A stretch of 64,000 nucleotides of DNA from Deltaproteobacteria bacterium (GCA_016709225.1 JADJEE010000012.1:2243630-2307629), one strand, 5' to 3'. Counted from the stretch's first letter, positions 3,465-38,168 are shown. Made by a program: numbers and translations. The notes: generated from the sequence alone by a model not told the origin.

Positions 3465-4091
3465 ATGCCCCGACCGCGCTTCCACAAGCTTCCCCCCGAG
3501 CAGCAGCAAGAGATCGTGCGCGCAGCCCTCACAGAATTCTCCGAGCACGGCTTCAACGCCGCGTCGTTGAACCGCATCATCGACGCGGCCGGCATCTCCA
3601 AGGGGTCGATGTACTACTACTTCGACGGCAAGGAGGACCTCTACGGCCACGTGGTCCGCGTCGAGCTCGGGCGGCTCTTCGAGGCCTCCGGTCCGTTCCC
3701 GGTGCCCTCCGCCCGCGATGCCGCCAGCTTCTGGGCCACGCTCACGGAGTACTACGGCCGCATCATGGGCGCGCTCATGGCCTCGCCGGCCCTCGCCGCG
3801 CTCGCCCGTGGCTGGCTCGCGGCGTCGGCCAGCCCCGCGCTGCAGCAGGTCCAACGCGAGATGGAGTCGGCCGTGCTGCCGTGGTTCGAGCGGGTGCTGA
3901 CCGCCGGCCAGCGCGCCCGTGCCGTCCGCAAGGACATCCCGACCAGCCTCGCGATCGCGATCGTGTTCGGCATGGGCCAGGCCATGGACACCTGGCTGCT
4001 CACGCAGGAGCTCGACGCCAAGTCGCTGCGAAAGTACGGCCCGATCTTGATCGGCATGTTCCGACGAACCCTGTCACCCGAGGAGCCCTGA
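3465..4091 (+). CDS. TetR/AcrR-family transcriptional regulator
   Basis: N-terminal HTH (ALTEFSEHGFNAASLNRIIDAAGISKGSMYYYF). 208 aa. The stop overlaps the RBS (GGAG at 4082-4085) of the next gene. Confidence 0.9.
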   Translation: MPRPRFHKLPPEQQQEIVRAALTEFSEHGFNAASLNRIIDAAGISKGSMYYYFDGKEDLYGHVVRVELGRLFEASGPFPVPSARDAASFWATLTEYYGRIMGALMASPALAALARGWLAASASPALQQVQREMESAVLPWFERVLTAGQRARAVRKDIPTSLAIAIVFGMGQAMDTWLLTQELDAKSLRKYGPILIGMFRRTLSPEEP

Positions 4092-4092
4092 G

Positions 4093-4770
4093 ATGGACAT
4101 GTACGGCCACAAGCACTCGAGCCTGCCGCAGAAGACGGTGATCGTCGCGATCGAGCTGGTGCTCCTCGGGATCGCAGGCCTCGTGCTGTTCGGCCCGCTG
4201 GGCGCCAGCTTCCGCGCGTTCGGTGATTCGCCCCACCTCGGTCGCAACCTGACGCTGCTGGTCTTCGACATCGTGGTGTTCGCGCGCTACCTCGCGACGA
4301 TGTTCGTGTTCGTCGAGCGGCGGATCCCCTGGGACGAGGCATTCTCGATCCCGCTCGCGTTCGCGCTCTACCTGGTCGGCTTCCCCTTGCTCGCGAAGCC
4401 GGCGTCGACGGGCTTCGGTGCGCTCGAGCTGCTCGGGATCGGCCTGTTCGTCGGCGGATCGTTCATCAACACCTACGCCGAGTACCAGCGACGCCGCTTC
4501 AAGCGACGGCCACAGAACGCCGGCCAGCTCTACACGGGTGGATTGTTCGCCATCACGATGCACCCGAACTATTTCGGCGACCTGCTGTGGGTCGCCGGCT
4601 TCGCCTGCGTCACCCACAACGCCTTTGCCTGGCTCATCCCCGCGTTCCTGCTGGGATTCTTCTACTTCTACAACATCCCCAAGCTCGACGCCTACCTGCG
4701 CAGTCACTACGGCGCGGCGTTCACCGCCTACGCGCAGCGAACGAAGCGGCTGGTGCCGTTCGTGCTCTGA
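4093..4770 (+). CDS. Membrane protein of the DUF1295 / ICMT / steroid-5-alpha-reductase-like methyltransferase fold
   Basis: Multi-TM, 225 aa. The C-terminal motif (HPNYFGDLLWVAGFA) is typical of this family. 2 nt after the TetR stop, so translationally coupled. Confidence 0.75.
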   Translation: MDMYGHKHSSLPQKTVIVAIELVLLGIAGLVLFGPLGASFRAFGDSPHLGRNLTLLVFDIVVFARYLATMFVFVERRIPWDEAFSIPLAFALYLVGFPLLAKPASTGFGALELLGIGLFVGGSFINTYAEYQRRRFKRRPQNAGQLYTGGLFAITMHPNYFGDLLWVAGFACVTHNAFAWLIPAFLLGFFYFYNIPKLDAYLRSHYGAAFTAYAQRTKRLVPFVL

Positions 4771-4926
4771 CGGTGCTCTGCTTGGGTGATCCGTCACCTG
4801 TCGCCGCGGGCACCGTGTCACCGACCTCGACGAGGTTCTACGGGTGTGGCGAGTGACGGCGGTGCGAGGCACCTCGCCATCGACTCGTCGCTTGCCTCCG
4901 TCCTGATCTCCCGGCATCGTCGAGCG

Positions 4927-5511
4927 GTGGTTCGCACCTTCGCGTTGCTCGGCATCCTCATCGCCGCATGCGACCGCTCCGAGCCGTCGCCGGCCGGCCA
5001 CGACCCCGCGTCGACGCCGACGGCCGACGAGCCGTGCGCGCGGGACGAGGACTGTGTGTTCGCGAGCGGCTGCTGCACCGGCTGCTCGTTCTTCAGTGGC
5101 CGCACCGCGAGCGCGCGCATGAGATCCGCGAGCGAACAGGCCAGCGAAGATCGCAAGTGCTGGCTGCGCGGATGGTTCGAGGACTGCCCGCATGTCGACT
5201 GCGCCTCGCCGCCGCCGTGTCGCCTCGATCTCGGCCCGGCGTGCGTGGAGGGCCGTTGCCGACCCCGCGCGACCGGGGTCGTGGGCGACGCCAACGATCG
5301 CTGTCGGGCCGACGCCTGCGGCGAGCCACCGGCGTTCACCGGCTCCGACTGCGATGACTTCGCCCAGGCGGCGTACGAGCGCTGCGCGTGCCTCGACGGC
5401 GGCGGCCCCTGCCCGCCGGAGATCTGGCGCGGCCTGTGTGCGGACGCCAGCCGCTGCGTGGGAGACTCGCCAGGCGTCGCGGTGACGCGCGCGACCGCCG
5501 ACTGCCCGTGA
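4927..5511 (+). CDS. Cys-rich secreted lipoprotein, hypothetical
   Basis: GTG start before the signal (VVRTFALLGILIAAC), many paired Cys. The start is uncertain; the track ORF begins at 4786. Confidence 0.45.
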   Translation: MVRTFALLGILIAACDRSEPSPAGHDPASTPTADEPCARDEDCVFASGCCTGCSFFSGRTASARMRSASEQASEDRKCWLRGWFEDCPHVDCASPPPCRLDLGPACVEGRCRPRATGVVGDANDRCRADACGEPPAFTGSDCDDFAQAAYERCACLDGGGPCPPEIWRGLCADASRCVGDSPGVAVTRATADCP

Positions 5512-5586
5512 TCGATGACGCCACGACCATGTGTGCGACGCCGCGGCGGGTGCGGGACGCCGCCCACGCGGCGAATGGTCGCTCGT

Positions 5587-6939
5587 TCACTCCTCGAACG
5601 GGTTCGCGAACGCGGGGTCGAGGAGGAACTCGTCGTCGGTCATCGACTCGAGGAATGCGATGACGGCGTCGATCTCTTCGTCGGTCGCGGGGAATCCGCG
5701 CACCAGCCCCGACTTGAGCGGGCTGACCCGACCATCGCCGGCGTACGGGCCCGTCTCGGTCACGGTGCCACCCGCGGCGTAGTGGTCGAGCACGTCGCGG
5801 AGCGTCGCCTTGCTGCCGTCGTGCATGTACGGCCCGGTCACCGCGATGTTGCGCAGCGACGGGGGCCGGAACAACCCGCGATGGTCTGGATCGAAGGTCA
5901 CCTCGAAGAGGCCCTGATCGTACGGCGGATAGCTGCCGTCGCCACCGACGTTGTAGAGCCCGTTGTTGAAGAACGGATACTGGATCGACCCCGGGTCGGA
6001 GTCCGCGTCGCGGTACGACGTGGTGAGGTTGATGCCATTGTGGCAGTGGAAGCACTCGAAGCGCTCGCCGAAGAACAGCGTCATGCCCTGGCGCTGCTGC
6101 TCGGTCAGCGCGTCGTGGTCACCGGCCACGAAGCGATCGTAGGGGCTGCGACCCGGGATCATCGTGCGACAGAAGCTCGCGAGCGCGAACACGATCTTGT
6201 TGACGGTCGCGCCCGACTCGCTCTCGGGGAACGCGGCCGCGAACATCGCTGCGTACATCGGATCGTCGTCGAAGCGCGCGAGCACCTCGGCCTCGTTGCC
6301 ATCGTTGATCCCCAGCTCGACCGGATTGTCGTTGCGTAGCGGCACCTGCAGCTGGTCCTCGAGCTCGAGCAGCACGTTGCTCGCCCACGTGAACGTCGTG
6401 CGATACGCGACCATGCCGAGCGCCTGGCTGTTGCGCTCGAGCACAGTACCGGTCGAGCCGCTCGGCGTCGTCTCGGGGTCTGCAAATCCCAGCTCTTGGA
6501 AGTGGCAGTCGGCGCACGACTGCTCGAGGTTTCCCGACAGGCGACGGTCGTAGAACAGATGCCGCCCGAGCTCGATCTTCTCGGCCGTGAGCGGATTGAA
6601 CTCGGGAATGTAGGGGGTCTCGAGGTGATCCGGCAGCCGCAGCAGCTCGCGAACGGGATCGACCGGGACGCCGCCGCTCGACGAATCGGCGGCGCCCGTG
6701 TCGGTCGGCACACCCGTGTCGTCGCTGCTGCCGCTCGTGCTCGTGCTCGTGCTCGTTCCGGTGCCCGTGCTGCCGCCGCTGCTGCTGCTCGCACTGGCGT
6801 GCTCACCCGCGCCGCTGGGCGACGAGCATCCGATCGACGCGCACAGCGCGAGCGCAAGCGACGTTGCCGCCCGCGCCCGCGGCCGCTCTGCCTCACTGGG
6901 CAGCGAACACCGCATCTTGATCCGCCGCCGAAACGCCAT
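5587..6939 (-). CDS. Di-heme cytochrome c peroxidase of the MauG/MbnH type (MXAN_0977-family di-heme enzyme)
   Basis: Two CxxCH motifs (CADCH, CFHCH). Signal peptide with lipobox (LALALCASIGCSS) after a Thr/Ser-rich linker. Start at ATG 6939; an alternative ATG is at 6915. Confidence 0.85.
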   Translation of the reverse strand: MAFRRRIKMRCSLPSEAERPRARAATSLALALCASIGCSSPSGAGEHASASSSSGGSTGTGTSTSTSTSGSSDDTGVPTDTGAADSSSGGVPVDPVRELLRLPDHLETPYIPEFNPLTAEKIELGRHLFYDRRLSGNLEQSCADCHFQELGFADPETTPSGSTGTVLERNSQALGMVAYRTTFTWASNVLLELEDQLQVPLRNDNPVELGINDGNEAEVLARFDDDPMYAAMFAAAFPESESGATVNKIVFALASFCRTMIPGRSPYDRFVAGDHDALTEQQRQGMTLFFGERFECFHCHNGINLTTSYRDADSDPGSIQYPFFNNGLYNVGGDGSYPPYDQGLFEVTFDPDHRGLFRPPSLRNIAVTGPYMHDGSKATLRDVLDHYAAGGTVTETGPYAGDGRVSPLKSGLVRGFPATDEEIDAVIAFLESMTDDEFLLDPAFANPFEE

Positions 6940-8014
6940 CGTCGATGTCGACGCCGAACGAGGCAAAGATGGTCCCACAGTGCGGCTGCATCGGCGACGA
7001 GTGACACTCGACGCCGGGCCCCTCGCCGATGATTTCGAACGTCTTGGGGTCATAGATCGGCGCGAGGAAGTCCACCCCCTCGAGCGCGCGCCCGAGGTCG
7101 ACCGCGACCACACCGGTCGCGAGATCGAACCCGTCGAGGTCGACCTTCGGTGTGTTCAAGAATCCGCACGCGTCTTGGTTCTCGAGCGCGAGCTCGCCAT
7201 CCCCCGCGCAATCGGTGCTCCCGATGTGCAGGTAGCCGCCGCCCGCGACCGCCTCGGGGTCCTCCACGGAGAAGTTGAACACGAAGTGGCGGTAGCCGGT
7301 CGCCCACGACCAGTACATCTCGCCCAGCGGCGACGGAGCCGCCTCCGCGCTCGTGGTGTTGATGAGATCCTTCATCACGGCCTGCGGCACACCGACGTCG
7401 AAGCTGATCCGCGTCACGTCCGCGACCTGCGTCATGCCGGTGATCACGTCGTTCTCGCGCGCGGTGCCTTCGGCGAAGGCAATCGCGGAGGCTTCGCAAT
7501 CGCCTTCGGTGTTGCTGGTGAGATCGATGAGCGAGACCTGTCCGGCATCACTCGTGTACTGGAAGTCGTTGACGTCGAGCTCGACGGTCACCTCGCTGCC
7601 GTCGGCGGCGTACATGTGCAGGTTGCTGATGTAGAACCGCAGATCCGCTGGGCTCGCGGTGTGCTCGCCGTCGGGGCCGAGCCCGGTGATCGTGCTGCCG
7701 CAACCGACCTCTTCGCCGTTGGCGACCGCCGCGAACCGCAGGCTGAACGGCGCGAGCGCCTCGCCGGTCGTGCTTCCGCCGGAGCTGTCGAGCCCGGTCG
7801 GGTCGGTATCGCTCGTCGCCGTGGTGGCGCTGGTGGTGGTGGCGGTCGGGTCTGTCGTGGTCGTCGATGCGGTGGTCGCCGAGGTGCTCGACATCGTCGG
7901 ATCGCCGGTCGAGCCGTCGGCGTTCGTCGAAGTCTCCGCGTCGTCGCCACCGCAAGCGCCGAGGACCGCAGCAAACAAAAGGGTGGGCGCGAGTGTCCGG
8001 CAGTCCATCGTCAT
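6893..8014 (-). CDS. Four-Cys partner lipoprotein of the metallo-mystery pair (MbnP-like)
   Basis: Lipobox (LLFAAVLGACGG), long Thr-rich linker, conserved Cys/His/Met/Trp-rich domain. Immediately upstream of the di-heme peroxidase and overlapping it by 47 nt (23 nt with the 6915 start). This is the partner-then-peroxidase order seen in mbnPH-type pairs. Confidence 0.7.
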   Translation of the reverse strand: MTMDCRTLAPTLLFAAVLGACGGDDAETSTNADGSTGDPTMSSTSATTASTTTTDPTATTTSATTATSDTDPTGLDSSGGSTTGEALAPFSLRFAAVANGEEVGCGSTITGLGPDGEHTASPADLRFYISNLHMYAADGSEVTVELDVNDFQYTSDAGQVSLIDLTSNTEGDCEASAIAFAEGTARENDVITGMTQVADVTRISFDVGVPQAVMKDLINTTSAEAAPSPLGEMYWSWATGYRHFVFNFSVEDPEAVAGGGYLHIGSTDCAGDGELALENQDACGFLNTPKVDLDGFDLATGVVAVDLGRALEGVDFLAPIYDPKTFEIIGEGPGVECHSSPMQPHCGTIFASFGVDIDDGVSAADQDAVFAAQ

Positions 8015-8296
8015 GTGTCGCGACGCTAGCCAGGCCGACCGCGCGCCGCCAGCGAGAATGGGGGGGCGCGAAAATTCGCCACATGCCTGGTGCCGCGTAG
8101 GCTCGAGTCGCGCATTGGGCATCGCAGGTGTTCCGCGAGGTGTTCAAGACTTGGCCAGCGCCGCCGGAGGGTCGCGGTGGCTGCGATGCCGTCGCGAACA
8201 GCGATGCCTCCCGCGTGACAGATCCGCAACGGGCATTCTCCGCCGCGTGCGCTAACCTCGGCGGAGGTCCGCCTCCGACGGGCAGCGGGTAGGATC

Positions 8297-8787
8297 ATGC
8301 GAAGGACCCTCAAGTTCCTGCACGAGGTCGGCAGCGCGGGGCTCATGGGCGCCGTCGCGGCCCAGGCAATCCTGTCGTTCGCCGCCGACGGTCGCGGGCC
8401 GCTCGAGTACGCGGCGATGCGCCACGCGATCTTGCTGGTCTCCCAGTGGCTGCTGGTCCCGTCCCTGCTGGTCGTGCTCGTCAGCGGGCTCGCCGCGATC
8501 GCAGCCCACCACCCGTTCCAGAACGCCGGCTGGGCGTGGATGAAGCCGCCACCACCTTGCTGGTGCTCGAGGGCACGCTGGTCGCCCTGTCGGGCCCCGC
8601 ACAGGGGGCCGCGGTGGTCTCGGCCCGGATCGCCGCCGGTGAACCGGCCGACGCCGAGGAGCTCGCCGACTTCGTCCGTCACGAGCGCGGCGGCCTCGCG
8701 ATGATCGCGTTGCTGTCGATCGTCAACATCGCGCTGGCGGTGTGGCGCCCTCGATTCAAGCGAAGGACGCCGCCGCCGCCGGAGTGA
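8297..8787 (+). pseudogene. Small integral membrane protein carrying an apparent +1 frameshift near 8500-8530
   Basis: The frame from ATG 8297 (RBS GGGTAGGA) gives two TM helices to ...HHPFQNAGWAWMK. The +1 frame then continues as ...TTLLVLEGTLVALSGPAQGAAVVSA...MIALLSIVNIALAVW to a stop at 8787. Either a true frameshift or a sequencing indel. Confidence 0.4.
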
Positions 8788-8838
8788 GTCCGTCGTCGAT
8801 CGCGGCGCAGCTTGGTCTCGACCCGAAGGTGCCGTGCC

Positions 8839-9864
8839 TCAGCCGGCGGGACAGCTCGGCGCACGCAGAACTTCGACGGCTGCGGTGGCGCGATCGATGA
8901 CAGCGAGGCTGCCGGTCGGCGCGTCCAGCCGAACGACGACGATCGACCCCTCCGGCTGCCAGCCGACCAGCGATGCGTGCCGCTCGCGGGGCGAATCGAA
9001 CCACAGAGCGTCGAGCGAGTAGCGGGCGATCTCCGTGCCCGTCGACACGTCGAGCACGAGCAAGGTGTCGAGGCGATCGACCAGGAAAGCCCAGTGATCG
9101 CCGCCGAGCCACGCAGGCTCCGTCGCAATTCCACCTCGAGGCTCGTCGATGACGCTCGTGAGCCGGTTGCCGTGTCGGTCGTAGAGCCAGCTCCGCACGC
9201 CGGGCTCGTCGCAGCCCTCGAGCAACACGTACAACGTATCGCCCAGCCAAACGTGGCTCGCGCAGCGCAACTGCGGGTCGTCGAGCTCGAATGCGGCGAC
9301 TCGTCGGTGATCCCGGTACGCCCAGATCTCCGCGCTCGCGGGGCCGCTCTCGAAGGTGTTGGTGACGGCGAGAACGCTGCGTTGCGCGGTGCTGGTGACG
9401 TGGCGGTCGAGCACGCCACTGCGCGGAACGCCGACGCGCAGCACGAAGCCCAAGTCGTTGGAGACCACGCCATCGAGGTCGATGCGGTCGATCCACTCTT
9501 GCGGTGTCGCGGGGCGGACGGTGGCGAACGCCGCTTCTGGCACGCGCGCGTCGGTACGCTGGTACTGCTTGTCGGCGAGGTCGACGAGTACGAGCACGGG
9601 CGAGATGCCGTAGTTGAACTCCAGCCCGAGCTGCCCGTCGACGATTCTCCCCATTGCGACGGACTGCGCCTCGGGAACACAGTCGCCGCTCGCCGCTTCG
9701 GACCTCGCGGACGCGGAAGACCGCGGGGCGACGGGCTCCCCGGGGCGCACCGGTGCGACGTCGACGGGAGAGGCCCTGCGCTCGGTGCTTCCAACTCGAC
9801 AGCCCGCGCCGACCAAGAGCGCGATCGACAACGCCGCCCTGAGTGTCCGAGAACGCAGGTGCAT
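8839..9864 (-). CDS. Secreted lipoprotein, hypothetical
   Basis: Signal with lipobox (ALSIALLVGAGC) from ATG 9864. Protein-like composition. No family recognised. Confidence 0.5.
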   Translation of the reverse strand: MHLRSRTLRAALSIALLVGAGCRVGSTERRASPVDVAPVRPGEPVAPRSSASARSEAASGDCVPEAQSVAMGRIVDGQLGLEFNYGISPVLVLVDLADKQYQRTDARVPEAAFATVRPATPQEWIDRIDLDGVVSNDLGFVLRVGVPRSGVLDRHVTSTAQRSVLAVTNTFESGPASAEIWAYRDHRRVAAFELDDPQLRCASHVWLGDTLYVLLEGCDEPGVRSWLYDRHGNRLTSVIDEPRGGIATEPAWLGGDHWAFLVDRLDTLLVLDVSTGTEIARYSLDALWFDSPRERHASLVGWQPEGSIVVVRLDAPTGSLAVIDRATAAVEVLRAPSCPAG

Positions 9865-10148
9865 CCACGCCGCAACGTCCCGGCTCATCGCCGGCGAGCG
9901 TAGCCGTCTTGCTCCGCGGGTTCCACCGACGCCAGGGAAGCCGGATCGGCTCATTGCGGGTACCCGGCGCTCAGAGTCTGCATGTCGTGCCAGACCCGCG
10001 ACGCGAAGCGGAGCTCACGGGATGTGCGGCACCGTGAAGCATGTCCCGAATCCCGCACGGCGTGCTGGCCTCAGGTCTGACATGAGGACGAACGCGCCCG
10101 CGCCTGGGGTGGTGTCGGCGAGCACGCACTCGGATACGCTGCGGCCCC

Positions 10149-11048
10149 ATGATTCGCACGGGTTCTCCGGGCTGGCTTGCGTCGGTGACATTCGGCGCGC
10201 TCGCATGCGCTGCTCGTCCAGCCGGCATCCCCAACGGTGCGCCGCACCTCGCACGCTCGAATGCGGGCTTCGACGCCGAGCAGCAGTTGAACCGGGCCCG
10301 AGGTCCGCTCGAGCTCCAGGCACCACCCCAGGGCTGGTGGGAAGCCGAGCACGCGTGCCCCGCGGGCACGACGTTGCTCGTACAGGGGAGCGACTACGAT
10401 CCGGCGCACCCCGAGACCGCAAGCGACTTACCGCGCATCGGGTGTGTGCGGCCGGATGGCACACAACACGGGCCATCGACGATCTTCGCTCGCAACGGTG
10501 TCGCGATCCAGCAGGGCCACTACCGCAACGGGCGCCAGCACGGCACGTGGGAGGAGCACAGCGCCACGGAGCCCGACGACGGCGGACGCGAGTACTGGGA
10601 TGACGGAGTCGGGATCGGAACGTGGTCGAGCACGTTCGGCGGCAGAGAGCGGTTGCTCGAGCATCGCGGACCCGGCGAGATCCATCGAACGATCCGTGAA
10701 GAAGGCGCCGTCGTCGAGCAGGGCCTGCTGGTCGATGGCCTGCGTCAGGGCCCGTGGACGATCACCACCGATGGTGTCACGCGCGAGGTCGAGTTCGTCG
10801 ATGGACGGGCAGCCGGCGCATCCGCGTTGATCGCCGTGCAAGCATGCGACGACTTTCTCCGCCGCATCTCCGTTTGCTTGGAGAGCAAGTCGGGCGCCGA
10901 GCGCTACGAGCTATCCTCGCTCCTCATCTTGCTCGTCGACCTCTGGGAAGACTTCGGCCTCGAGGTCTCTCCAGGAAGGAGCGAGCCGCTGTGTGTCGTC
11001 AACGTGCGCAACACGCAGGACACACTCGCGGCGCACGGCTGCGAGTGA
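10149..11048 (+). CDS. MORN-repeat (YwqK-like) secreted protein
   Basis: Signal peptide. Repeated G..HG.W motifs (NGRQHGTWEEH, DGVGIGTWSST, DGLRQGPWTIT). Confidence 0.55.
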   Translation: MIRTGSPGWLASVTFGALACAARPAGIPNGAPHLARSNAGFDAEQQLNRARGPLELQAPPQGWWEAEHACPAGTTLLVQGSDYDPAHPETASDLPRIGCVRPDGTQHGPSTIFARNGVAIQQGHYRNGRQHGTWEEHSATEPDDGGREYWDDGVGIGTWSSTFGGRERLLEHRGPGEIHRTIREEGAVVEQGLLVDGLRQGPWTITTDGVTREVEFVDGRAAGASALIAVQACDDFLRRISVCLESKSGAERYELSSLLILLVDLWEDFGLEVSPGRSEPLCVVNVRNTQDTLAAHGCE

Positions 11049-11285
11049 CCGTCGTCGGTGACACGGGGAGCGAGTGCTGTCGTTCGGCGACACCCGCTCC
11101 CCATGTGCATCGTCACGCCCCCCTTGAACGCGAGCAACGGCCGCAGCCGTCGCACCGCGCGGGTCAGCTCCCGCTGCGCGCGCATCACCGCGCCGATGTC
11201 CTTGTACGCATCGGGGGCTTCCTCGACCAGCCGTGGCGCGACCCGGTGGTCGAACCACACGCCCTGCATCGATCGATGCAGCGAT

Positions 11286-17342: not shown

Positions 17343-18788
17343 TCAGCGATCCCCATCCGCGAGCGATTCGCCGCCACGCCCCATCGCGACGTCGGCGGCG
17401 GCACGAACCATCGAGGTTGCCGCCGCGGGCTCGGGCGCGTGCGGTGCCTCCGTATCCTCGGGCATGTGCGGCCCGTGACGCACCTTCTCGTTCACCACCA
17501 CCAGCCACAGGGCGAAGAGCGCCAGATAGATCACCGCGAACATCACCAGCGACACCATCACCTGGTCGGCATCCACGGCGACGGAGTTGGCATCGCGCGT
17601 CCGCAGCAGTCCGTACACCACCCACGGCTGGCGACCGACCTCGGCGGCGACCCAGCCGCCCTCGTTGGCGGCGTAAGGGCCGAGCACCGCGAGCACGAAG
17701 ATCCACAACAGCCACCGCTGCTGCCACAGCACACCGCGCCACCACAGCACGCACGCCAGCGACGTGAGGCCGATGAACGCGGTGCCGAGCATCGCCATGA
17801 CGTGGTACGCGAGAAACGGGATCACGACCGGCGGGCGCTCGTCCTCGGGCACGCGATCGAGCCCGGCGACCGGCGTGTCGAAATCCTCGTGGATGAGGAA
17901 GCTGAGCATGCCGGGGATCGCGATGCCACCGCGGACCCGCTGTGCGTCGACATCGGGCCAGCCGACGAGGTACATCGGCGCACCGCCTTCGCCGGTCACG
18001 AAGTGGCCCTCGAAGGCGGCGAGCTTCGCGGGCTGGTGGCGCGCGACCATGTTGGCCTGTGCGTGCCCGGACACCAGCTCGCCCCACGACGCCAGCGTGG
18101 CGATGACGAGCCCGATCGCGAAGCTGCGCCGGGCGAAGCCGACGTGGCGCCCCCGCAGCAGGTACCACGCGCTGATGCTCATCACGAAGAAGCCACCCAG
18201 GATGAACGCGCCCAGCAGCACGTGATTGAGCCGGTGCACGGTCGAGGGGTTGAAGACCATCGCCCAGAAGTCGGTCACCTCGACGCGCGCGGCGCCATCG
18301 TGCACCACGAGGCGGTGCCCGGCCGGCGTCTGCTGCCACGAGTTGGCGATGATGATCCACACCGCGGAGAACGTGCTGCCGAGGAACACCATCACGGTCG
18401 CGAAGAAGTGCATGCGCCGCGACACGCGGTCCCAGCCGAACACCAGCACCGCGAGGAAGCCCGACTCGAGGAAGAACGCGAAGATGCCCTCGGCCGCCAG
18501 CGCCGAGCCGAACACATCGCCGACGAAGCGCGAGTAGGTGGCCCAGTTGGTGCCGAACTGGAACTCCATCACGATGCCGCTGGCGACCCCGACCGCGAAA
18601 TTGACGGCGAAGATGCGGGTCCAGAAGCGAGCCATCGCCTCGTATGCGGCGTCGCCGGTGCGCAGCGCAAAGCCCTCGATCACGACCATCACCAGCCCCA
18701 AGCCGATCGAGAGCGGCGGGAACAGGTAGTGGAACATGATCGTGAACGCGAACTGGATCCGCGACAGCAGGACGACGTCGAGATCCAC
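17343..18788 (-). CDS. cydA: Cytochrome bd-type quinol oxidase subunit I
   Basis: N-terminus [23 protein letters not shown] matches the CydA consensus (E. coli MLDIVELSRLQF...). Q-loop and 9 TM helices. GTG start with GAGGTG 7 nt upstream. Confidence 0.85.
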
Positions 18789-18798
18789 CGCGATCACC

Positions 18799-19863
18799 TC
18801 ACTTGTCGAACAGACCGTCGAGGTCCTCGCGCCGCGCACCCTTGGCGTCGCAGACCGCGAACTGGCCCCCGGGATAGAGCGCCGCGCCGCCGTAGCGACC
18901 GCCGCGATCGACCGCGTAGAAGTTGACGTTGAAGTCGGGCCGCCCATCCGCGCGCAGCAATCGCTTGGCGCGGGTGGTCTCGACGATGCGCTTGCATGCG
19001 GCCATGCACGCGTCCTTGGGGTGCTTGCCCGCGCGGATGAACTCGACCACCGTGTGACTGCCGGCGCTGACGATGTTGGCCTCGCCACGCCCGGTGCTGC
19101 CGGCCGCGCCGACGAGGTTGTCGACGAACAGACCCGCGCCGATGAGCGGCGAGTCGCCGACGCGACCGGGGATCTTGAATGCGAGCCCGCTGGTGGTGGT
19201 GACACCGCCGAGGTCGCCGTTGCGATCGACGCCGCAGCAGTTGATGGTGCCGGTGATGCCGAAGTGCGCCTTGACATCGGCGGGCACGTCCTTGCCGGTC
19301 TTGGGCAGCCAGTCGTCGCGATCGGACAGCGTCGACTTCCAGTACAGCCAGATCTCGCGCGCCTCGGGCGTGAGCAACTCCTGCTCGACGAAGCCGTGGG
19401 CGTTGGCGAACGCGCGCGCGCCCTCGCCCGACAGCAGCACGTGATCGGTGTAGCGCAGCACCGCCAGTGCGACCTGGCTGGGGTTCTTGATCCGTCGCAG
19501 CGAGCACACCGCGCCCGCCAGACCGCTCGGTCCATCCATGACCGAGGCGTCGAGCTCGACCTCGCCGTCTTCGTTGGGCAGGCCGCCGAGGCCGACGCTG
19601 TGATCGTTGGGATCGTCCTCCACCAGTGTCACGCCCTTCACCACCGCGTCGACCACCGGTGCACCGTCGAGGATCGCCTTCATCGCGGTCTCGACGCAGG
19701 CGGGATGACCGTTGGCGGAGGCGACCACGACCGGGTGCTTGGGCTTGCGCAGCACCGCCGGCGCGGCCGCACTGGCGCCGCGGCTGGGCGGCGCCATCAG
19801 GCAGCCGGAGCCGAGCACCATCGACGATCGGAGCAGGAAACCGCGGCGTCGCAATCGGGGCAT
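18799..19863 (-). CDS. Ntn-hydrolase isoaspartyl peptidase / L-asparaginase (aspartylglucosaminidase-like), Tat-exported
   Basis: Twin-arginine signal ([14 protein letters not shown]). Autoproteolytic G-T nucleophile region ([14 protein letters not shown]). Stop is 10 nt before the cydA start. Confidence 0.8.
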
Positions 19864-19894
19864 GGACACCCGCGAGCGTGCCAGAAAATCCGGG

Positions 19895-22810
<2,916 letters not shown>

Positions 22811-23084
22811 CGGGCGCAATGGACGGGCTCGAACGGCCCCCCGGGAGGGCGACGCAGCGCCCCGCCGGTACCCGATCGAATGGCCAGTCTATCAGTCGCC
22901 CCCACCGACGTCGGCGGCCCGGCCGCTCGTGGGGGCCCTGGCCGTCGACCTGCTCCGCACGCTCGCCACCCCCATCACGACCACGAAATCGCCAACCATC
23001 GACACCCCTGCGGGGTCCGGCCTACCCTCGCGCGCCGAGGCCGCGGCGACGCACGTCCCTTCCCACGGCAGAAGAGGTTCGACC

Positions 23085-24287: not shown

Positions 24288-24456
24288 GCCCTCGCGAACT
24301 GTTCGCACGACGCCCGTGCAACTTGCCCAAGGCCCGCGTGATCCCGAGTCGATCGCGCGGGCCTTCGCGCGTGGCAGCGGAGCACGATCGCAGGAAGATC
24401 GCGTGCGGACTCCGTACCCGTGATTCGGGGCACACCGGTTGCAGTCCAGTGCGTCC

Positions 24457-25914
24457 ATGCGGAAGCGATCGATCATGGAGACCCTGTGGTGCGCATGCCT
24501 GGGACTCGTCGCGGCGGCCGGCTGCAGCGCGGCGAGCTTGCAAGGCGACGACCACGGCGGCGCGTGCCGATCGCCGGCAGGCTGCGTCGGTGACGACGCC
24601 GGCACCAGCGGTGCGAGCGGCTGGGATCCCGCCGACGACAGCAGCGACGGCAGTGGAGCCGCAACCGGCGGCGACGAGGCGACCTCGTCCGAGCCACCAC
24701 GAGGGCCGCAGCTGCCGTGCGACGTCGCGGCCGCGCTGTCGCGGGCGTGCGGCGAGTGCCACGGCGACACGCCGGCCTACGGCGCCCCGATGTCGCTGGT
24801 GGACTTCGATGACCTGCACGTGCCCGCGCCGACCGACCCCACCCGCTCGGTGTTCGATCTCGTCGGCGAGCGCATCACCGCCGACACGAAGATGATGCCA
24901 CCCGACGACGACATCACCGACGCCGAGCGGGCCGCGTTGTTGTCGTGGATCGAGGCCGGCGCACCGGCAGATCCCGACGCCCAGTGCGGCGATCTCCCGC
25001 CGCCCGACGATGGCCCCGACGTCGGCCCCGAGGCGCTGCCGTGCGAGACCAACTTCGAGGTGCGTGCACACGCGCCCGGCGGCCAGGGTGGCTTCCAGGT
25101 GCCAGCGCAGGGCGCCGACGATCTCTACCAGTGCTTCGCCTTCAAGGCGCCGTTCACCGAGCCTCGGCAGGCGGTCGCGTGGGCCCCGATCATCGACGAC
25201 GAGCGCGTCGTGCACCACTGGATCCTCTACCGCACGCCGTCACCGCAGGAGGACGGCGGTGTGTTCCCCTGCGATGTCTCGCTGCAGGTCTCGGCGGAGT
25301 TCGTCGCGGGCTGGGCCCCCGGTGGTGGCAACGTGCTGATGCCCGAGGGCGTCGGCCTCGAGCTCGGCGATCCCAACGACTGGTACGTGCTGCAGGTCCA
25401 CTACCACAACACCGCGCACCACCAGGACGCCGTCGACGCCAGCGGCGTGGCCTTCTGCATGCCGGACGAGCCGCGCCCGCAGACCGCCGGCGTGCTCACC
25501 CTCGGCACCACGAGTCTGAACATCCCCGCCGGCGCGGTTGCCCACGAGGAGACCGGCAACTGTGGCGGGCTGCTGACGCTGTTCTGGCCCGGCGACCTGC
25601 ACATCATCGGGAGCTCACCGCACATGCACGAGCTCGGCCGTGGCTTCCACACCGAGCTGGTGCGCGCCGGCGGCGTCACCGAGGTCGTCACGGACGTGCC
25701 GGTGTTCAACTTCGAGAGCCAGGGCATGTACTTCAACACGCCCGAGATCGTGGTGCACCCCGGCGAGTCCCTGCGCACTACCTGCGTCTTCGACAACCCC
25801 GGCGCCGAGATGGTGCACTTCGGTGAAGGCACCACCGACGAGATGTGCTTCAACTTCGTGCTCGCCTACCCCATCCAGCAGCTCAACAATCGCAACTGCG
25901 GGATCGTGTTCTAG
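24457..25914 (+). CDS. Secreted lipoprotein: N-terminal c-type heme motif fused to a PHM/DBH-like type-II copper monooxygenase fold
   Basis: Lipobox (LVAAAGC). CGECHGD (CxxCH). Then HHWILY, H.H and HMH...M spacing, like the CuH/CuM ligand sets of peptidylglycine monooxygenase. Confidence 0.75.
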   Translation: MRKRSIMETLWCACLGLVAAAGCSAASLQGDDHGGACRSPAGCVGDDAGTSGASGWDPADDSSDGSGAATGGDEATSSEPPRGPQLPCDVAAALSRACGECHGDTPAYGAPMSLVDFDDLHVPAPTDPTRSVFDLVGERITADTKMMPPDDDITDAERAALLSWIEAGAPADPDAQCGDLPPPDDGPDVGPEALPCETNFEVRAHAPGGQGGFQVPAQGADDLYQCFAFKAPFTEPRQAVAWAPIIDDERVVHHWILYRTPSPQEDGGVFPCDVSLQVSAEFVAGWAPGGGNVLMPEGVGLELGDPNDWYVLQVHYHNTAHHQDAVDASGVAFCMPDEPRPQTAGVLTLGTTSLNIPAGAVAHEETGNCGGLLTLFWPGDLHIIGSSPHMHELGRGFHTELVRAGGVTEVVTDVPVFNFESQGMYFNTPEIVVHPGESLRTTCVFDNPGAEMVHFGEGTTDEMCFNFVLAYPIQQLNNRNCGIVF

Positions 25915-34557: not shown

Positions 34558-37500
34558 TCACGGCCGCACGAGCGTCGCGAGCCACGCGTCGATCTCGGCG
34601 CGCTCGGGCGCGGCCGGATCGTAGAGCGCTTGCGCGGCACGGGCGAGCTCGTCCACGTCGGATCGCGAGCCGCCGCTGGCCCAGGTCGCCTCGGCGAGTC
34701 GGCGGCGTGCGGTCGCGCGCTGATCGGCCGACGCACCGCCGCGATCGAGACGCTCCTGCGCCTCACGAGCCGTGGCAAGGGCCGCGTCGGCGTCGCCCAG
34801 CTGCAGCTGCGCGGTGCACAGATCGAGCAGGACCGCGCCGAGGTCGGGATGATCGGGCTGCGTCTTTGCCAGCAAAGTCCGAGCGCGCTCGAAATGGGCG
34901 AGCGCCGCGGCCGGGCGCCCGAACGCGAGCTCGTCGTTGCCCAGGCCCACGAGGATGGGCGGCAGCAAGGTGTGCGCGGGGCCCAGCTTCTCCTCGATGA
35001 TCGCGAGCGCCCGCCGGTGATGTGCGAGCGCGTCGTCGAGGCGACCCAACGCTCGTTCGGCGTCGCCGAGGTTGCCGAGGGCGTTGGCCAGCTCGGGATG
35101 GTCCGGCCCGAGCGCGCGCTCGAAGATCGCCACGGCGCGCTCGAGCTGCCGCGCGGCGTCGGCCGGCCGCTTCGCACTGCGCGTGACGACGCCCAGATTG
35201 GTGAGGCTCTGCGCAACGCGGGGATGATCGGGCCCGAAGGCGGCCTCGTTGACCGCGAGCACGCGCGCCATCAATGCGGCAGCCTGCTCGAGATCGCCGC
35301 GACGCCAGTACACCTCGGCCTCGTTCGACAGCGCGTTGGCGACGTCAGGGTGATCCTCGCCGAAGGTGGCGACGAAGATCGCTCGCGCCTGCTCGTAGCT
35401 CGCGAGCGCATCGTCGAGGCGGCCGAGATCGACGAGCGTGGTGCCGAGGTTGTTGAGCGACAACGCCACGTCGGGGTGCTCGGGACCAAGCCGCTCGCGG
35501 AGGATCGCGAGTGCACGCGTGTGATGGGCGAGCGCATCGTCGAGGCGGCCGAGATCGCGGGCCATCACGCCGAGCTCGTTGTGCATCCGCGCACCGCGGA
35601 GGTCACCCTCCTCGCCGAGTCGCTCGACCAGCGACTCGGCCCAGCGCGCCCACAGCTGGCCTTCGGCGGGCCGCACCAGTCGCAGCGCGACGACCACCGC
35701 GAGGCGGCGCGCCGCATCGGCCGCCTCGGCATCCTCGCCCAGCTCGACGGCGGCGAGCACCGCCTGGGTCAGCTCGCGCTCGGCATCCTCGTGACGGCCG
35801 ACCCTCTCGAGCAGTGCCCCGACACGCGCGCGGCTGCGGACGATGAGCGCCGGATCACCGTGCGCCTCGGCGTCGGCGAGCAAGCCCTCGGCCATCGCGA
35901 GCGCGGGTTCGGCACGGCCTGCCGCCTGCAGCGCATCGACGCGGACGAGCTGCCGTTCGATCGCGAGATCGCTCGCATCGCGCTCGGCCGGGGCATGACG
36001 AACCACCCAACCGACGTCCTGGCAGCGCTCGACCGGGGGCAGCTCGGCCGCGAGCAGCAGTGCCTTGCCGACGAACTTCCGGTCGGCCTCACGCGCGACC
36101 TCGAGAAGCGCCGCGAGCGACTCGGCCTCGAGGTCCAGACAGTCGCGCATTCCGGCGACGATCGCAGGGGGCTGCGTGCCGTCCAGCCCCGCACGGCACG
36201 CATCGACGCGCGCGGCGGACCAGCGTGCGGCATAGTCGTCGATGGCGGGCGAGAACTTCGCGATCGTCGGGGTCGCAAACGGCACCTCGGTGGTGCGCAT
36301 CGCGGTCTCGACCTCGGCACGGATGCGATCGTCCCAGTGCTCGTCGATGGCATCGCCCTCGCGATCGCAACCTGCGAGCGCGCGCACGTGGGCGATCCGC
36401 CACGCCGCCGCGCCGCCGCCGGCGAGCGCGAGCAACCCACCCACCGCCAACCAACGTCGACGGCGCTGTCGCGGATCGCGGGCGAGGGCAGCGAGCAGCG
36501 CATCGAGATCTTCGAAGCGGTCGGCCGGCGCCAGGGCAAGCCCGCGATCGAGCACCCGGCGTACGAACGTGGGAACGCCAGTCGCGAGCTTCGGTTCGAC
36601 ACGTCGGCCCGAGAGCACCGCGGCCGCCAGTTCGGGCAGCGAACGCGCGGCGAACGGACGACTGCCGTACACGCCCTCCCACAGCGCCACGCAGAAGCTG
36701 AACTGATCCGAGCGGGGATCGATCGGCATGCTCTGGAACTGCTCGGGGGACATATACGCTGGCGTACCCACCGTCGTGCCGGTGCGCGTCAGATCGGTGG
36801 CGAGCGCGTCGGTGCGCGGCCGCGGCCCGTCGCTCGTGATCTCGTCGACGTGCTGCACCCGCACGAGCCCGAAGTCCATGACGAGCACGCGACCGTCGTC
36901 GCCGACCATCACGTTGTCGGGCTTGAAGTCGCGATGCACGAGCCCCTTGCGATGCGCGGCCGCGAGTCCGCGTCCGGCCTGCATCATGACGGCGATCACC
37001 TCGCTCCACGTGCGCGGACTCGCCTGCAGCCACTGCCGGAGCGTCACGCCCTGCACCAGCTCCATCGCGAGAAACACCTGGCCCTCGTGCGTGCCGACGT
37101 CATGCACGGCGATGACATTGGGGTGGCTCACCCGCGCCATCGCCTGGGCCTCGCGCAGCAGTCGATCGTCGACGCCGGGGCTGGCGGCCGCCTGGTCCTC
37201 GTCGCCGAAGAGCCGATGCATGAGCCGCCCCAGCACGCGGGCCTCGCCGAGCTCCGCATGCAGTCGATGCAGCAGTTTGAGCGCGACCCGGCGGTCGAGC
37301 TCGGGATCGTACGCCGCATAGACGGTCCCCATGCCGCCCGCACCGAGCCGATCGAGCACCACGTAGCGACCGATCGTCTGGCCGCGCGCGAAGCCCTCGC
37401 CGCGTGGGCGGGCACCGGTGCCGTCGGCCGGCCCCGAGCCTTTGGTCGTCTCGGTCTCGCCGCTCACATGCTTCCGCCCGCTTCGCGCTGCCCGCTGGCT

Positions 37501-37638
37501 GTCGTCGGGCGCTCGGCAACCTGTGCGGGACGCCGGTCGCTCGAGCGTACCAGGGTTGTACGCGGCCGCGGCACCAACCCCACCGCGCCGCCGCTCCCCA
37601 CGGCGCATCGCACGGATCGGCTCGCGCCATCGAGCCAC
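34558..37638 (-). CDS. Ser/Thr protein kinase with a long C-terminal TPR array (paralogue of 19895-22810)
   Basis: GAGGMGTVY, VALK, HRDFKPDN, DFG, SPE. About 45-aa insert after the catalytic Lys. About 600 aa of TPR. The start is uncertain (non-ATG in the track; next in-frame ATG at 37608). Confidence 0.85.
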   Translation of the reverse strand: MARWREPIRAMRRGERRRGGVGAAAAYNPGTLERPASRTGCRAPDDSQRAARSGRKHVSGETETTKGSGPADGTGARPRGEGFARGQTIGRYVVLDRLGAGGMGTVYAAYDPELDRRVALKLLHRLHAELGEARVLGRLMHRLFGDEDQAAASPGVDDRLLREAQAMARVSHPNVIAVHDVGTHEGQVFLAMELVQGVTLRQWLQASPRTWSEVIAVMMQAGRGLAAAHRKGLVHRDFKPDNVMVGDDGRVLVMDFGLVRVQHVDEITSDGPRPRTDALATDLTRTGTTVGTPAYMSPEQFQSMPIDPRSDQFSFCVALWEGVYGSRPFAARSLPELAAAVLSGRRVEPKLATGVPTFVRRVLDRGLALAPADRFEDLDALLAALARDPRQRRRRWLAVGGLLALAGGGAAAWRIAHVRALAGCDREGDAIDEHWDDRIRAEVETAMRTTEVPFATPTIAKFSPAIDDYAARWSAARVDACRAGLDGTQPPAIVAGMRDCLDLEAESLAALLEVAREADRKFVGKALLLAAELPPVERCQDVGWVVRHAPAERDASDLAIERQLVRVDALQAAGRAEPALAMAEGLLADAEAHGDPALIVRSRARVGALLERVGRHEDAERELTQAVLAAVELGEDAEAADAARRLAVVVALRLVRPAEGQLWARWAESLVERLGEEGDLRGARMHNELGVMARDLGRLDDALAHHTRALAILRERLGPEHPDVALSLNNLGTTLVDLGRLDDALASYEQARAIFVATFGEDHPDVANALSNEAEVYWRRGDLEQAAALMARVLAVNEAAFGPDHPRVAQSLTNLGVVTRSAKRPADAARQLERAVAIFERALGPDHPELANALGNLGDAERALGRLDDALAHHRRALAIIEEKLGPAHTLLPPILVGLGNDELAFGRPAAALAHFERARTLLAKTQPDHPDLGAVLLDLCTAQLQLGDADAALATAREAQERLDRGGASADQRATARRRLAEATWASGGSRSDVDELARAAQALYDPAAPERAEIDAWLATLVRP

Positions 37639-37706
37639 GCATGGACGCGACGCGGAGCGACGCGGCCGGCTTCGGGTAACATCGCCGCCCCGAGGGAGAG
37701 CCGACG

Positions 37707-38168
37707 ATGCGCAAGGTGACGCCGTTTCTGATGTTCGACGACCAGCTCGAAGCCGCGATGGCGTTCTACACCGCCACGTTCCCGGACTCCGAGATCAAGA
37801 ACGTCGCGCGCACCGGCGCAGATGGGCCGGTCAGTTCCGCGGAGTTCGTCGTCGGTGGTCAGGCGTTCATGGGCTACAACGGCGGGCCGTACTTTTCGTT
37901 CTCGGAGGGTTTCTCGCTGTACGTCGACTGCGAGGACCAGGCCGAGGTCGATGCGTACTGGAACAAGCTCGTCGAGGCCGGCGCCACGCCGACCCAGTGT
38001 GGTTGGATCAAGGACCCGTTCGGCGTCACCTGGCAGATCGTGCCGCGGCGCTTCACCGAGCTCATCCGCGACGCAGACCGGAAGAAGGTCAAGGCCGTAA
38101 TGGACGCGATGTTGACCATGGTGAAGCTCGACGTCGCGGCGCTCGAGCGCGCCTACGACGAGGCGTAG
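37707..38168 (+). CDS. PhnB-like VOC-family protein (3-demethylubiquinone-9 3-methyltransferase-like domain)
   Basis: 153 aa. MRKVTPFLMFDDQ...A..FY...F consensus of the PhnB/glyoxalase fold. Confidence 0.8.
   Translation: MRKVTPFLMFDDQLEAAMAFYTATFPDSEIKNVARTGADGPVSSAEFVVGGQAFMGYNGGPYFSFSEGFSLYVDCEDQAEVDAYWNKLVEAGATPTQCGWIKDPFGVTWQIVPRRFTELIRDADRKKVKAVMDAMLTMVKLDVAALERAYDEA

Follow-up and report, generated by a model that had tools for sequence, protein, structure and literature searches.

What do MbnP/MbnH gene pairs do outside methanobactin operons? The question is raised by two overlapping genes of a Deltaproteobacteria bacterium, found in a stretch of 64,000 nts (GCA_016709225.1, JADJEE010000012.1:2243630-2307629), hereafter called the window. 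MbnPH genes were first noticed in mbn operons, adjoining the MbnT transporter (PMC3621798; PMC9601215), and pairs of this type occur far beyond methanobactin producers (PMC3621798). The window copy comes from a non-methanotroph and is a clean module, made up of the two genes without a conserved context. It is very likely a stand-alone mbnP-mbnH operon, i.e., a "metallo-mystery pair" (TIGR04052/TIGR04039), the enzyme of which would mature a kynurenine-copper site in MbnP.

The initial annotation described a partner lipoprotein gene followed, with an overlap of 23-47 nts, by a di-heme peroxidase gene. Re-examination of the ORFs confirms this arrangement, in position and strand as well as in overlap (Table 1). 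The mbnP-like ORF extends from the ATG at 8014 to a TGA at 6893-6895 and the mbnH-like ORF from the ATG at 6939 to a stop codon at 5587-5589. An alternative mbnH start at 6915, which was chosen in the gene calls of metagenome contigs identical to the window, leads to a product of 442 aa. In both ORFs the third-position GC is 0.85-0.86, as for real genes in this ~70% GC genome. An upstream ATG at 8122 was rejected as the mbnP start in favour of 8014, because the homology to a 94%-identical relative (L005/L006) begins downstream of 8122, only ~88 nts upstream of 8014. The upstream block delimited by this homology contains an AT-rich inverted repeat (GCGAA-TT-TTCGC, 8068-8079) and, as read from its sequence, is a possible promoter or operator. 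A promoter and terminator scan of positions 5200-8900 returned none, including no sigma-70-like promoter.

Table 1. Features of the mbnP-mbnH locus (positions counted from the first nucleotide of the window; a slash marks the predicted lipobox cleavage site).
Feature	Coordinates	Strand	Basis or remark
Upstream block travelling with the pair	8015..8102	-	Homology to L005/L006 starts here; further upstream unrelated
mbnP-like gene	6893..8014	-	373 aa, lipoprotein, copper-binding protein family MbnP
MbnP signal peptide and lipobox (MTMDCRTLAPTLLFAAVLGA/C21)	7952..8014	-	Read from sequence
MbnP Thr/Ser-rich tether, residues 22-88	7751..7951	-	Composition
MbnP domain, residues 89-373	6896..7750	-	HMM and PDB alignments, conservation counts
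WxW motif, W235-S-W237	7304..7312	-	Counterpart of MAWNW in 7L6G; kynurenine predicted to arise from W235
His263, predicted copper ligand	7226..7228	-	Only His that pairwise alignment shows in common with M. trichosporium MbnP
His338, adjoining Cys337, probable ligand position	7001..7003	-	Role suggested by the family alignment
Gene overlap	6893..6939	-	mbnH start inside the mbnP 3′ end; 47 nts, or 23 nts from the ATG at 6915
mbnH-like gene	5587..6939	-	450 aa, lipoprotein, di-heme enzyme family MbnH
MbnH signal peptide and lipobox (...SLALALCASIG/C38)	6826..6939	-	Read from sequence
MbnH Ser/Gly/Thr-rich tether, residues 39-100	6640..6825	-	Composition
Heme-binding motif 1, C142-A-D-C-H146, peroxidatic heme	6502..6516	-	Sequence; conserved in relatives
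Trp185, inter-heme position, only Trp of MbnH	6385..6387	-	TFTW matched to TLTW in the 6E1C alignment
Heme-binding motif 2, C296-F-H-C-H300, six-coordinate heme	6040..6054	-	Sequence; conserved in relatives
Tyr387, MauG-type distal ligand predicted for the six-coordinate heme	5779..5781	-	14 residues past His373 of PYMHDG

The metallo-mystery identity of the pair, already proposed in the initial annotation, was checked with the TIGRFAM HMMs and both proteins score above the curated cut-offs. The partner matches TIGR04052, "MbnP family copper-binding protein" (MbnP_like_WxW), with 199.9 bits (cut-off 140, E = 4e-59) over profile positions 2-255 of 257, and PF20243 with 98.7 bits (cut-off 27). 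Its domain is only ~25-30% identical to M. trichosporium MbnP, and 7L6G (MbnP) is its sole sequence match in the PDB (E = 2.7e-21). The AlphaFold model of the partner (pLDDT 87.5, pTM 0.88) points to the same fold, since a Foldseek search of the PDB retrieved six chains of 7L6G (TM 0.69-0.72, E ~1e-16), among them one match at TM 0.71 and E = 4e-17, while the next match, from outside 7L6G, has E = 0.02. The partner was initially described as a four-Cys lipoprotein. However, the mature protein has six conserved Cys (105, 173, 269, 283, 337 and 346), which are invariant in the MbnP domain and each have a Cys counterpart in 7L6G, the same six being found in M. trichosporium MbnP. Their columns are conserved in 126-129 of 130 diverse family members (MAFFT --auto). 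Conservation was further assessed in 121 aligned close relatives of MbnP and, for MbnH, in a sample of 20.

The enzyme matches TIGR04039, "MbnH family di-heme enzyme" (MXAN_0977_Heme2), with 457.1 bits (cut-off 362.85, E = 3e-137) and over the entire profile (positions 1-336 of 336). Its best solved relative is PDB 6E1C (E = 9.4e-96, ~50% identity), labelled "Di-heme enzyme" in the PDB and presumably M. trichosporium MbnH. Classical bCCPs (~1e-32), MauG (~1e-23) and BthA (1.7e-5) also match. Both CxxCH motifs are conserved in 19-20 of 20 relatives. Trp185 is present in 19 of the 20 and lies 39 residues past His146, the spacing also found from His55 to Trp94 in P. aeruginosa CCP. Tyr387 is present in equally many, and its distance from His373 equals that between His280 and Tyr294 of MauG (chain numbering; the position is marked by the Y294H entry 3ORV).

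The enzyme also matches the Pfam model CCP_MauG, a domain common to bCCPs, and together with the ~1e-32 matches to bCCPs of known structure this could suggest an ordinary H2O2-detoxifying cytochrome c peroxidase of the CcpA type, preceded by a lipoprotein that is unrelated or a mere electron donor. However, the bCCP model NF040606 is not passed (22.7 bits against a cut-off of 150), the MbnH model is, and 6E1C is the best solved relative by 60 orders of magnitude. Furthermore, Tyr387 and not Met occupies the ligand position of the six-coordinate E-heme, and a His-Tyr heme sets MauG-type enzymes apart from bCCPs (PMC11892367; PMC6405878). Finally, in all the phyla concerned the gene of the enzyme is invariably accompanied by that of MbnP. 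An ordinary CcpA peroxidase is hence effectively refuted and we regard it as extremely improbable, in line with the earlier assignment of the enzyme to the MauG/MbnH-like group.

The His-Tyr heme and the inter-heme Trp read from the sequence are likewise features of a MauG-type maturase, which could equip a dehydrogenase with TTQ or a similar quinone cofactor, and the first sightings of MbnPH beside MbnT could be taken to mean that the pair serves the uptake or maturation of methanobactin. Against the former, the MauG model TIGR03791 is not passed (139.7 bits against 443.85), nor is the His-Xaa-Ser MauG-like model (109 bits against 340), and no amine dehydrogenase gene was seen among the credible ORFs of the 64-kb window. 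Against the latter, no mbnB (DUF692), mbnC or other methanobactin gene and no TonB-dependent receptor gene was found in the credible ORFs of the window, Pfam searches at E limits from 0.01 to 0.0001 having returned none of the DUF692/MbnB, MbnC or TonB-receptor domains in 59 window ORFs; the occurrence of such pairs far outside methanobactin producers argues in the same direction. We therefore consider either role very improbable. The earlier suggestion that the pair, lacking mbnBC, acts independently of methanobactin is reasonable given the content of the window ORFs.

A stand-alone mbnP-mbnH operon is also what the relatives display, as P precedes an adjacent H in every relative examined and, in many genomes, the two form a two-gene unit. 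No conserved third gene was found. The neighbours in the window, encoding a TetR regulator, a DUF1295 protein, a Cys-rich lipoprotein, a DUF2269 protein and a 371-aa lipoprotein, recur beside the pair only in contigs identical to the window, and no other copper genes were found close to it. Because no copper gene, TonB receptor or regulator lies next to the pair, the context is silent on its physiological role. Among GTDB species representatives there is no close genome, the best match to the MbnH being 68% identical. The ~70% GC and the presence of Ser/Thr-kinase-TPR genes hint at a member of the Myxococcota.

The copper site of the partner was considered by alignment with the characterized protein. 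In M. trichosporium MbnP, Trp174 of the WxW motif is converted into Kyn174 in an MbnH-dependent manner, and copper is bound by His, Met, kynurenine and water (PMC11951088). In the diverse family sample, the two WxW tryptophans are present in 129/130 and 128/130 sequences. The column of His263 is occupied by His in 128 of the 130, and by elimination His263 would be a copper ligand. Two positions compete for the remaining protein ligand. Met233 aligns with Met147 of the 7L6G chain, in a column that holds Met in 82 sequences and Leu in 46. His338 aligns with Met244 of the same chain, in a column that holds Met (80, including M. trichosporium MbnP), His (38) or Gln (7), is occupied by Met, His, Gln or Glu in 126 of the 130 sequences and is His in 121/121 close relatives. 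Hence, when the partner is searched for the conserved Trp, His and Met of MbnP, as the initial annotation advised, the Trp and the family-invariant His are found but the Met is ambiguous, since Met233 aligns with one while the better-conserved Met column holds His338.

Met214, His243 and His338 are invariant in the 121 close relatives and correspond to Asn, Phe and Met in M. trichosporium MbnP and in the wider family, so the metal site may differ from the characterized one. The same maturation chemistry could then produce another site, in which His338 replaces the thioether and His243 and/or Met214 are recruited, giving two or three His plus kynurenine as in MopE*/CorA, which use two His, kynurenine and water (PMC11951088). 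The subfamily signature hints at a site of two His plus kynurenine. Consistent with this, column 338 is ligand-capable throughout nearly all of the family whereas the Met/Leu alternation of column 233 resembles that of a core position, and the register of the modelled hairpin (strands 156-167 and 173-183, model numbering) would place His243 and His263 on the same face of the sheet. However, if the ligand in 7L6G is the Met located two residues before WxW, Met233 retains it and the site would be classical. In addition, His243 and His338 never occur together outside the subfamily in our sample and need not form one site. PCuAC copper-chaperone domains are fused to the MbnP domains of two proteins (P0129 and P0168), and the fusion in P0129, a member of the same subfamily as the window MbnP, still indicates copper. 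We thus hold a remodelled site to be possible but rather unlikely; if it exists, its affinity, preferred oxidation state or even its metal would differ from those of M. trichosporium MbnP.

Both products carry an export signal with a lipobox (ending in VLGA-C21 in MbnP) and should therefore be lipid-anchored through Cys21 and Cys38. Only 13 of the 121 aligned close MbnP relatives lack a permissive lipobox pattern within their first 45 residues, and those MbnH relatives in which a lipobox and the domain motifs were both recognizable (9/19) are likewise lipoproteins. A "FRRRIK" stretch in MbnH was considered as a Tat signal and rejected, as it lies well away from the hydrophobic region and the maturation of c-type cytochromes follows Sec export. 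The long Thr/Ser-rich tethers noticed behind the lipoboxes of both proteins are real. Residues 21-88 of MbnP include 22 Thr and 11 Ser in 68 positions, and residues 39-100 of MbnH include 18 Ser, 11 Gly and 9 Thr in 62. As judged from the sequences, such long lipid-anchored stalks on both proteins are one unusual trait of this copy, the other being the His at a probable copper-ligand position that is Met in the characterized protein. The distance between lipobox and domain is 69 residues in MbnP, compared with a median of 13 in its relatives, and the tether of MbnH is 65 residues, compared with 20-27 in the nine relatives in which it is measurable. Fifteen of the 22 differences between the window MbnP and a 98%-identical protein (P0001) fall within residues 1-88, and the DNA encoding the MbnH tether contains short repeats of 3 and 6 nts. 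A few other family members also have long low-complexity tethers.

By homology with MbnH and MauG, H2O2 would bring the enzyme into a bis-Fe(IV) state, in which it would oxidize Trp235 of the co-tethered MbnP into kynurenine. A high-affinity copper site would then be formed by this kynurenine and His263 together with solvent and one further protein ligand, probably His338, from the Met/His/Gln column, and otherwise Met233. Each protein is carried on a disordered Ser/Thr-rich stalk of ~65-70 residues. In the envelope, MbnP would serve to bind copper or to hand it off, without involvement of methanobactin. The conversion of Trp into kynurenine, copper binding and the bis-Fe(IV) state are inferred here from a single characterized pair.

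The pair is an ordinary member of a family that has already been named and annotated. Its weight as a discovery is small, as TIGR04052 and TIGR04039 are curated, close relatives already bear these names and one pair has been structurally characterized. A wider proposal is that the Met214/His243/His338 subfamily, found in Myxococcota, Ca. Manganitrophus and some other lineages, has a distinct kynurenine metal site on the MbnP fold, with two or three His plus kynurenine, which converged on MopE*/CorA and is carried here on a ~70-residue stalk beside an equally tethered maturase. We put this forward tentatively and with more doubt than belief; if true, the protein would be a reach-out copper-capture device of the envelope or cell surface, rather than a soluble periplasmic buffer. 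The window pair is of modest use as a pointer. Because it combines a His at the Met/His/Gln column with natural tethers on enzyme and substrate, it is a convenient system to address the influence of the ligands on kynurenine-copper sites and the possible benefit of co-anchoring for long-range oxidation.

MauG, involved in TTQ biosynthesis, and BthA of Burkholderia are di-heme His-Tyr enzymes that use H2O2 to reach the bis-Fe(IV) state and oxidize a partner at long range (PMC6405878; PMC11892367). The window enzyme would differ from both in its substrate protein and its product. It fails the MauG HMM, matches BthA only at E = 1.7e-5 and, unlike BthA, retains the inter-heme Trp. MopE*/CorA of gammaproteobacterial methanotrophs, with their CorB-type di-heme peroxidases, share with the window pair a Trp-derived kynurenine copper site, an adjacent peroxidase gene and cell-surface association (PMC11951088; PMC3621798), the kynurenine site and surface location being predictions for the window protein. 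In the latter, His263, His338 and Kyn235 may form a site of two His plus kynurenine as in MopE*/CorA. However, MopE* and CorA belong to another fold and sequence family, being described as having distinct folds and no marked similarity to MbnP (PMC11951088; PMC3621798), whereas the window protein, according to Foldseek on its model, clearly has the MbnP fold.

The closest characterized system is MbnP/MbnH of M. trichosporium OB3b. The two pairs have in common the membership of both families by curated HMMs, the P-then-H gene order, the MbnP fold (TM 0.71), the WxW motif, the invariant His and the six Cys of the partner, and the two CxxCH motifs, inter-heme Trp and Tyr ligand of the enzyme. The MbnP and MbnH of this methanotroph are soluble in the periplasm, unlike the window proteins, both of which are lipid-anchored through 65-70 residues of tether. 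The window genes also differ in overlapping by 23-47 nts and in lying outside any methanobactin operon, with no adjoining TonB receptor, and the window MbnP has His338, His243 and Met214 in place of Met, Phe and Asn.

Relatives in the same subfamily are metallo-mystery pairs of the MXAN_0977 type, myxobacterial and other, from Polyangiaceae, Nannocystaceae, Minicystis, Plesiocystis and Ca. Manganitrophus, the entries of which are named MbnP/MbnH family. They are 55-66% identical to the window MbnP and 62-71% to the window MbnH, carry the same Met214/His243/His338 signature, are both lipoproteins where this is readable and form the same two-gene unit. They differ in their tethers, which are approximately three to five times longer in the window pair (MbnP, 69 residues against a median of 13; MbnH, 65 against 20-27). 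Consequently, the longer N-terminus of the window MbnH makes its gene begin within the last codons of mbnP, so that the genes overlap, whereas in relatives they overlap by 1 nt at most or lie up to 7 nts apart; the overlap probably couples the translation of the two genes.

The two minus-strand genes of the pair, an mbnP-like gene for a partner lipoprotein followed by an mbnH-like gene for a di-heme enzyme, lie in a window with a GC content of about 70% throughout, and both ORFs show a gene-like third-position GC of 0.85-0.86. The overlap of 23-47 nt claimed in the initial annotation is 47 nt when the enzyme starts at ATG 6939 and 23 nt when it starts at ATG 6915, the start that identical metagenome contigs have in their gene calls. 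Relatives show anything from a 1-nt overlap to a 7-nt gap at the junction; the overlap in the window is due to the longer MbnH N-terminus. A start of the partner at the upstream ATG 8122 is unlikely, because a 94%-identical relative of the pair (L005/L006) matches the window downstream of about 8102 only, its sequence further upstream being unrelated.

Features of the window at and around the mbnP-mbnH pair
Feature	Coordinates	Strand	Remarks
TetR regulator	3465-4091		neighbour of the pair
DUF1295 protein	4093-4770		neighbour of the pair
Cys-rich predicted lipoprotein	4786-5511	+	241 aa; convergent with mbnH; only in window-identical contigs
Enzyme ORF (downstream)	ATG 6939 or in-frame ATG 6915 to stop 5587-5589	-	450 or 442 aa
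Partner ORF (upstream)	ATG 8014 to TGA 6893-6895	-	373 aa
Inverted repeat GCGAA-TT-TTCGC	8068-8079		AT-rich; about 55-65 nt upstream of the mbnP start
DUF2269 membrane-protein gene, split	8297-8787	+	divergent from mbnP; N-terminal half in ORF 8297-8704 (Pfam DUF2269 positions 2-80), C-terminal half in ORF 8446-8787
371-aa lipoprotein	8839-9954		neighbour of the pair
RtcB (RNA ligase) Pfam match	10904-11269	-	121-aa ORF called on the window-identical contig L001; overlaps ORF 10149-11048 (+)
Cytochrome bd oxidase subunit I gene adjoining asparaginase_2 family gene	17343-20184	-	
Large Ser/Thr protein kinases fused to long TPR arrays (two)	19895-22888; 34558-37794	-	
Copper type II ascorbate-dependent monooxygenase-like protein	24424-25914	+	PHM/DBH-like; both domains, Cu2_monooxygen and Cu2_monoox_C

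The partner scores 199.9 bits over nearly the full NCBIfam profile TIGR04052 ("MbnP family copper-binding protein", MbnP_like_WxW; curated cut-off 140) and 98.7 bits against Pfam MbnP. By sequence (E = 2.7e-21) and by fold, its sole solved relative is 7L6G, the MbnP of Methylosinus trichosporium: an AlphaFold model computed from 45 input sequences (pLDDT 87.5, pTM 0.88) matches only the six 7L6G chains in the PDB (TM about 0.71, E about 1e-16), the next match having an E of 0.02.

Similarly, the enzyme passes TIGR04039 ("MbnH family di-heme enzyme", MXAN_0977_Heme2) with 457.1 bits (cut-off 362.85). Its best solved relative is 6E1C (PDB label "Di-heme enzyme"; E = 9.4e-96, about 50% identity), which we take to be M. 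trichosporium MbnH, and its best match among GTDB species-representative genomes is 68% identical. Classical bCCPs (about 1e-32), MauG (about 1e-23) and BthA (about 1e-5) also match it in the PDB. A role as a MauG-like TTQ maturase is contradicted by the score against the MauG model (139.7 bits, cut-off 443.85), and the His-Xaa-Ser MauG-like model fails too (109 bits, cut-off 340). MauG-type enzymes differ from canonical ones in having Tyr rather than Met as sixth ligand to the second heme (PMC11892367; PMC6405878). In MauG, this ligand is Tyr294 (placed by chain numbering and marked by the Y294H entry 3ORV), 14 residues past His280 of the PYMH motif; in the enzyme, Tyr387 lies exactly 14 residues past His373 of PYMHDG. 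This Tyr, together with a score of 22.7 bits against the canonical peroxidase model (cut-off 150), contradicts a classical peroxidase. Two CxxCH motifs are present (142-146 and 296-300), and the enzyme has one Trp, W185, which at the inter-heme position matches the TLTW motif of 6E1C. Because these diagnostic residues are kept (and retained in 19-20 of 20 relatives from other genomes), the enzyme does not group with CcpA.

The modified residue of M. trichosporium MbnP is reportedly the first Trp of a WxW motif. This residue, Trp174 of the conserved motif, is converted to kynurenine in an MbnH-dependent manner, and the copper site consists of His, Met, kynurenine and water (PMC11951088). In the partner, W235-S-W237 aligns with the WxW motif of 7L6G. 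The 7L6G sequence, rebuilt from the PDB search alignment, was added to an alignment of 130 diverse MbnP members taken from a 50%-identity representative search (947 clusters, E <= 0.001), among which W235, W237, His263 and the six mature Cys are nearly invariant; the conserved Trp and His expected of an MbnP are thus in place. Because no other His is common to the partner and 7L6G, His263 is, by elimination, the predicted copper ligand. For the Met ligand there are two candidate columns. In one, with 82 Met and 46 Leu, Met233 stands opposite a Met of 7L6G. In the other, which follows the fifth Cys, 7L6G and 80 sequences carry Met, 38 carry His and 7 carry Gln; the window residue is His338, and His occurs in 121 of 121 close relatives. 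Since this alternation beside an invariant Cys looks ligand-like, His338 is favoured as the third ligand. In addition, the window subfamily has invariant His243 and Met214 at positions that are Phe and Asn in the rest of the family. One alternative alone stays live: a version of the main interpretation with the metal site of the subfamily remodelled into a His-rich one, resembling those of the kynurenine-copper proteins MopE* and CorA; that the partner displays such a distinct site on its stalk is less likely than not.

Both signal peptides end in a lipobox (VLGA-C21 in the partner, ASIG-C38 in the enzyme), followed by the long tethers first noted, Thr/Ser-rich in the partner (residues 22-88) and Ser/Gly/Thr-rich in the enzyme (residues 39-100). 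Close relatives, where readable, are likewise lipoproteins with shorter tethers: 69 residues in the window MbnP versus a median of 13 in close relatives, and 65 in MbnH versus 20-27 in the nine relatives with both motifs located. The tether is the fast-evolving part of the partner, as 15 of the 22 differences from a 98%-identical relative (P0001) fall in residues 1-88. Tether DNA contains short 3- to 9-nt repeats. Because long acidic or Ser-rich tethers occur sporadically elsewhere in the family, those of the window are a quantitative peculiarity and not a new architecture.

All inspected relatives (Polyangia, Nannocystaceae, Plesiocystis, Ca. Manganitrophus, Teredinibacter and others) keep the P-then-H order, with no third gene conserved around the pair, and the flanking genes of the window reappear only in window-identical contigs. 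The 241-aa Cys-rich lipoprotein has no Pfam match. The split of the DUF2269 gene across two reading frames recurs in three independent metagenome contigs (L001-L003); it is thus probably genuine (a frameshift or pseudogene) rather than a sequencing error. In L005 (from SRR17347198; compared with window 6741-8102), the pair has wholly different upstream genes (RCC1/WD40, cupin, HxlR, hydrolase). The pair and its 88-nt leader therefore behave as a self-contained module, moved or rearranged between close relatives. The inverted repeat lies within this block (8015-8102), conserved with L005/L006 and flanked upstream by unrelated sequence, and could serve as a promoter element or operator; a scan for sigma-70-like promoters gave no match.

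A Pfam scan of 59 window ORFs contained no DUF692/MbnB, MbnC or TonB-dependent receptor. The pair therefore stands outside any methanobactin system, as initially proposed, and an accessory role in one is contradicted. This agrees with the published spread of MbnP/MbnH pairs far beyond methanobactin producers (PMC3621798); they often lie within copper-related operons (PMC9426467). A PCuAC copper-chaperone domain is fused to the MbnP domain in two relatives, P0168 and P0129, the latter 44% identical to the partner with the same His338/His243/Met214 signature; such fusions provide an independent link to copper. In further relatives, the extra domain is DUF4397 or PKD, or the MbnP domain is present twice. 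At a distance of 16 kb from the pair, the monooxygenase-like protein may be a copper client.

Elsewhere in the window, the RtcB ORF may be what is left of a gene, as a full RtcB is far longer. At the cytochrome bd oxidase locus, long upstream extensions that stay open make the stop-to-stop ORFs overlap. Kinase-TPR fusions and 70% GC are typical of Myxococcota.

The sequence shows export signals and lipoboxes in both proteins and, in the enzyme, two c-heme sites, the inter-heme Trp and a Tyr ligand of MauG type, as well as the WxW motif, His, Cys pattern and MbnP fold of the partner. By homology, MbnH would react with H2O2 to form bis-Fe(IV), which would oxidize W235 over a long range to kynurenine; copper would then be held by Kyn235 and His263, with His338 or Met233 as third protein ligand, and by solvent. 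Speculatively, the pair could serve in envelope copper capture or hand-off, the flexible stalks keeping enzyme and substrate close. The initial annotation as a metallo-mystery pair holds in both observation and interpretation. The locus is a further member of the known and already annotated MbnP/MbnH family, on which the long tethers and, probably, the His-for-Met ligand are modest twists.
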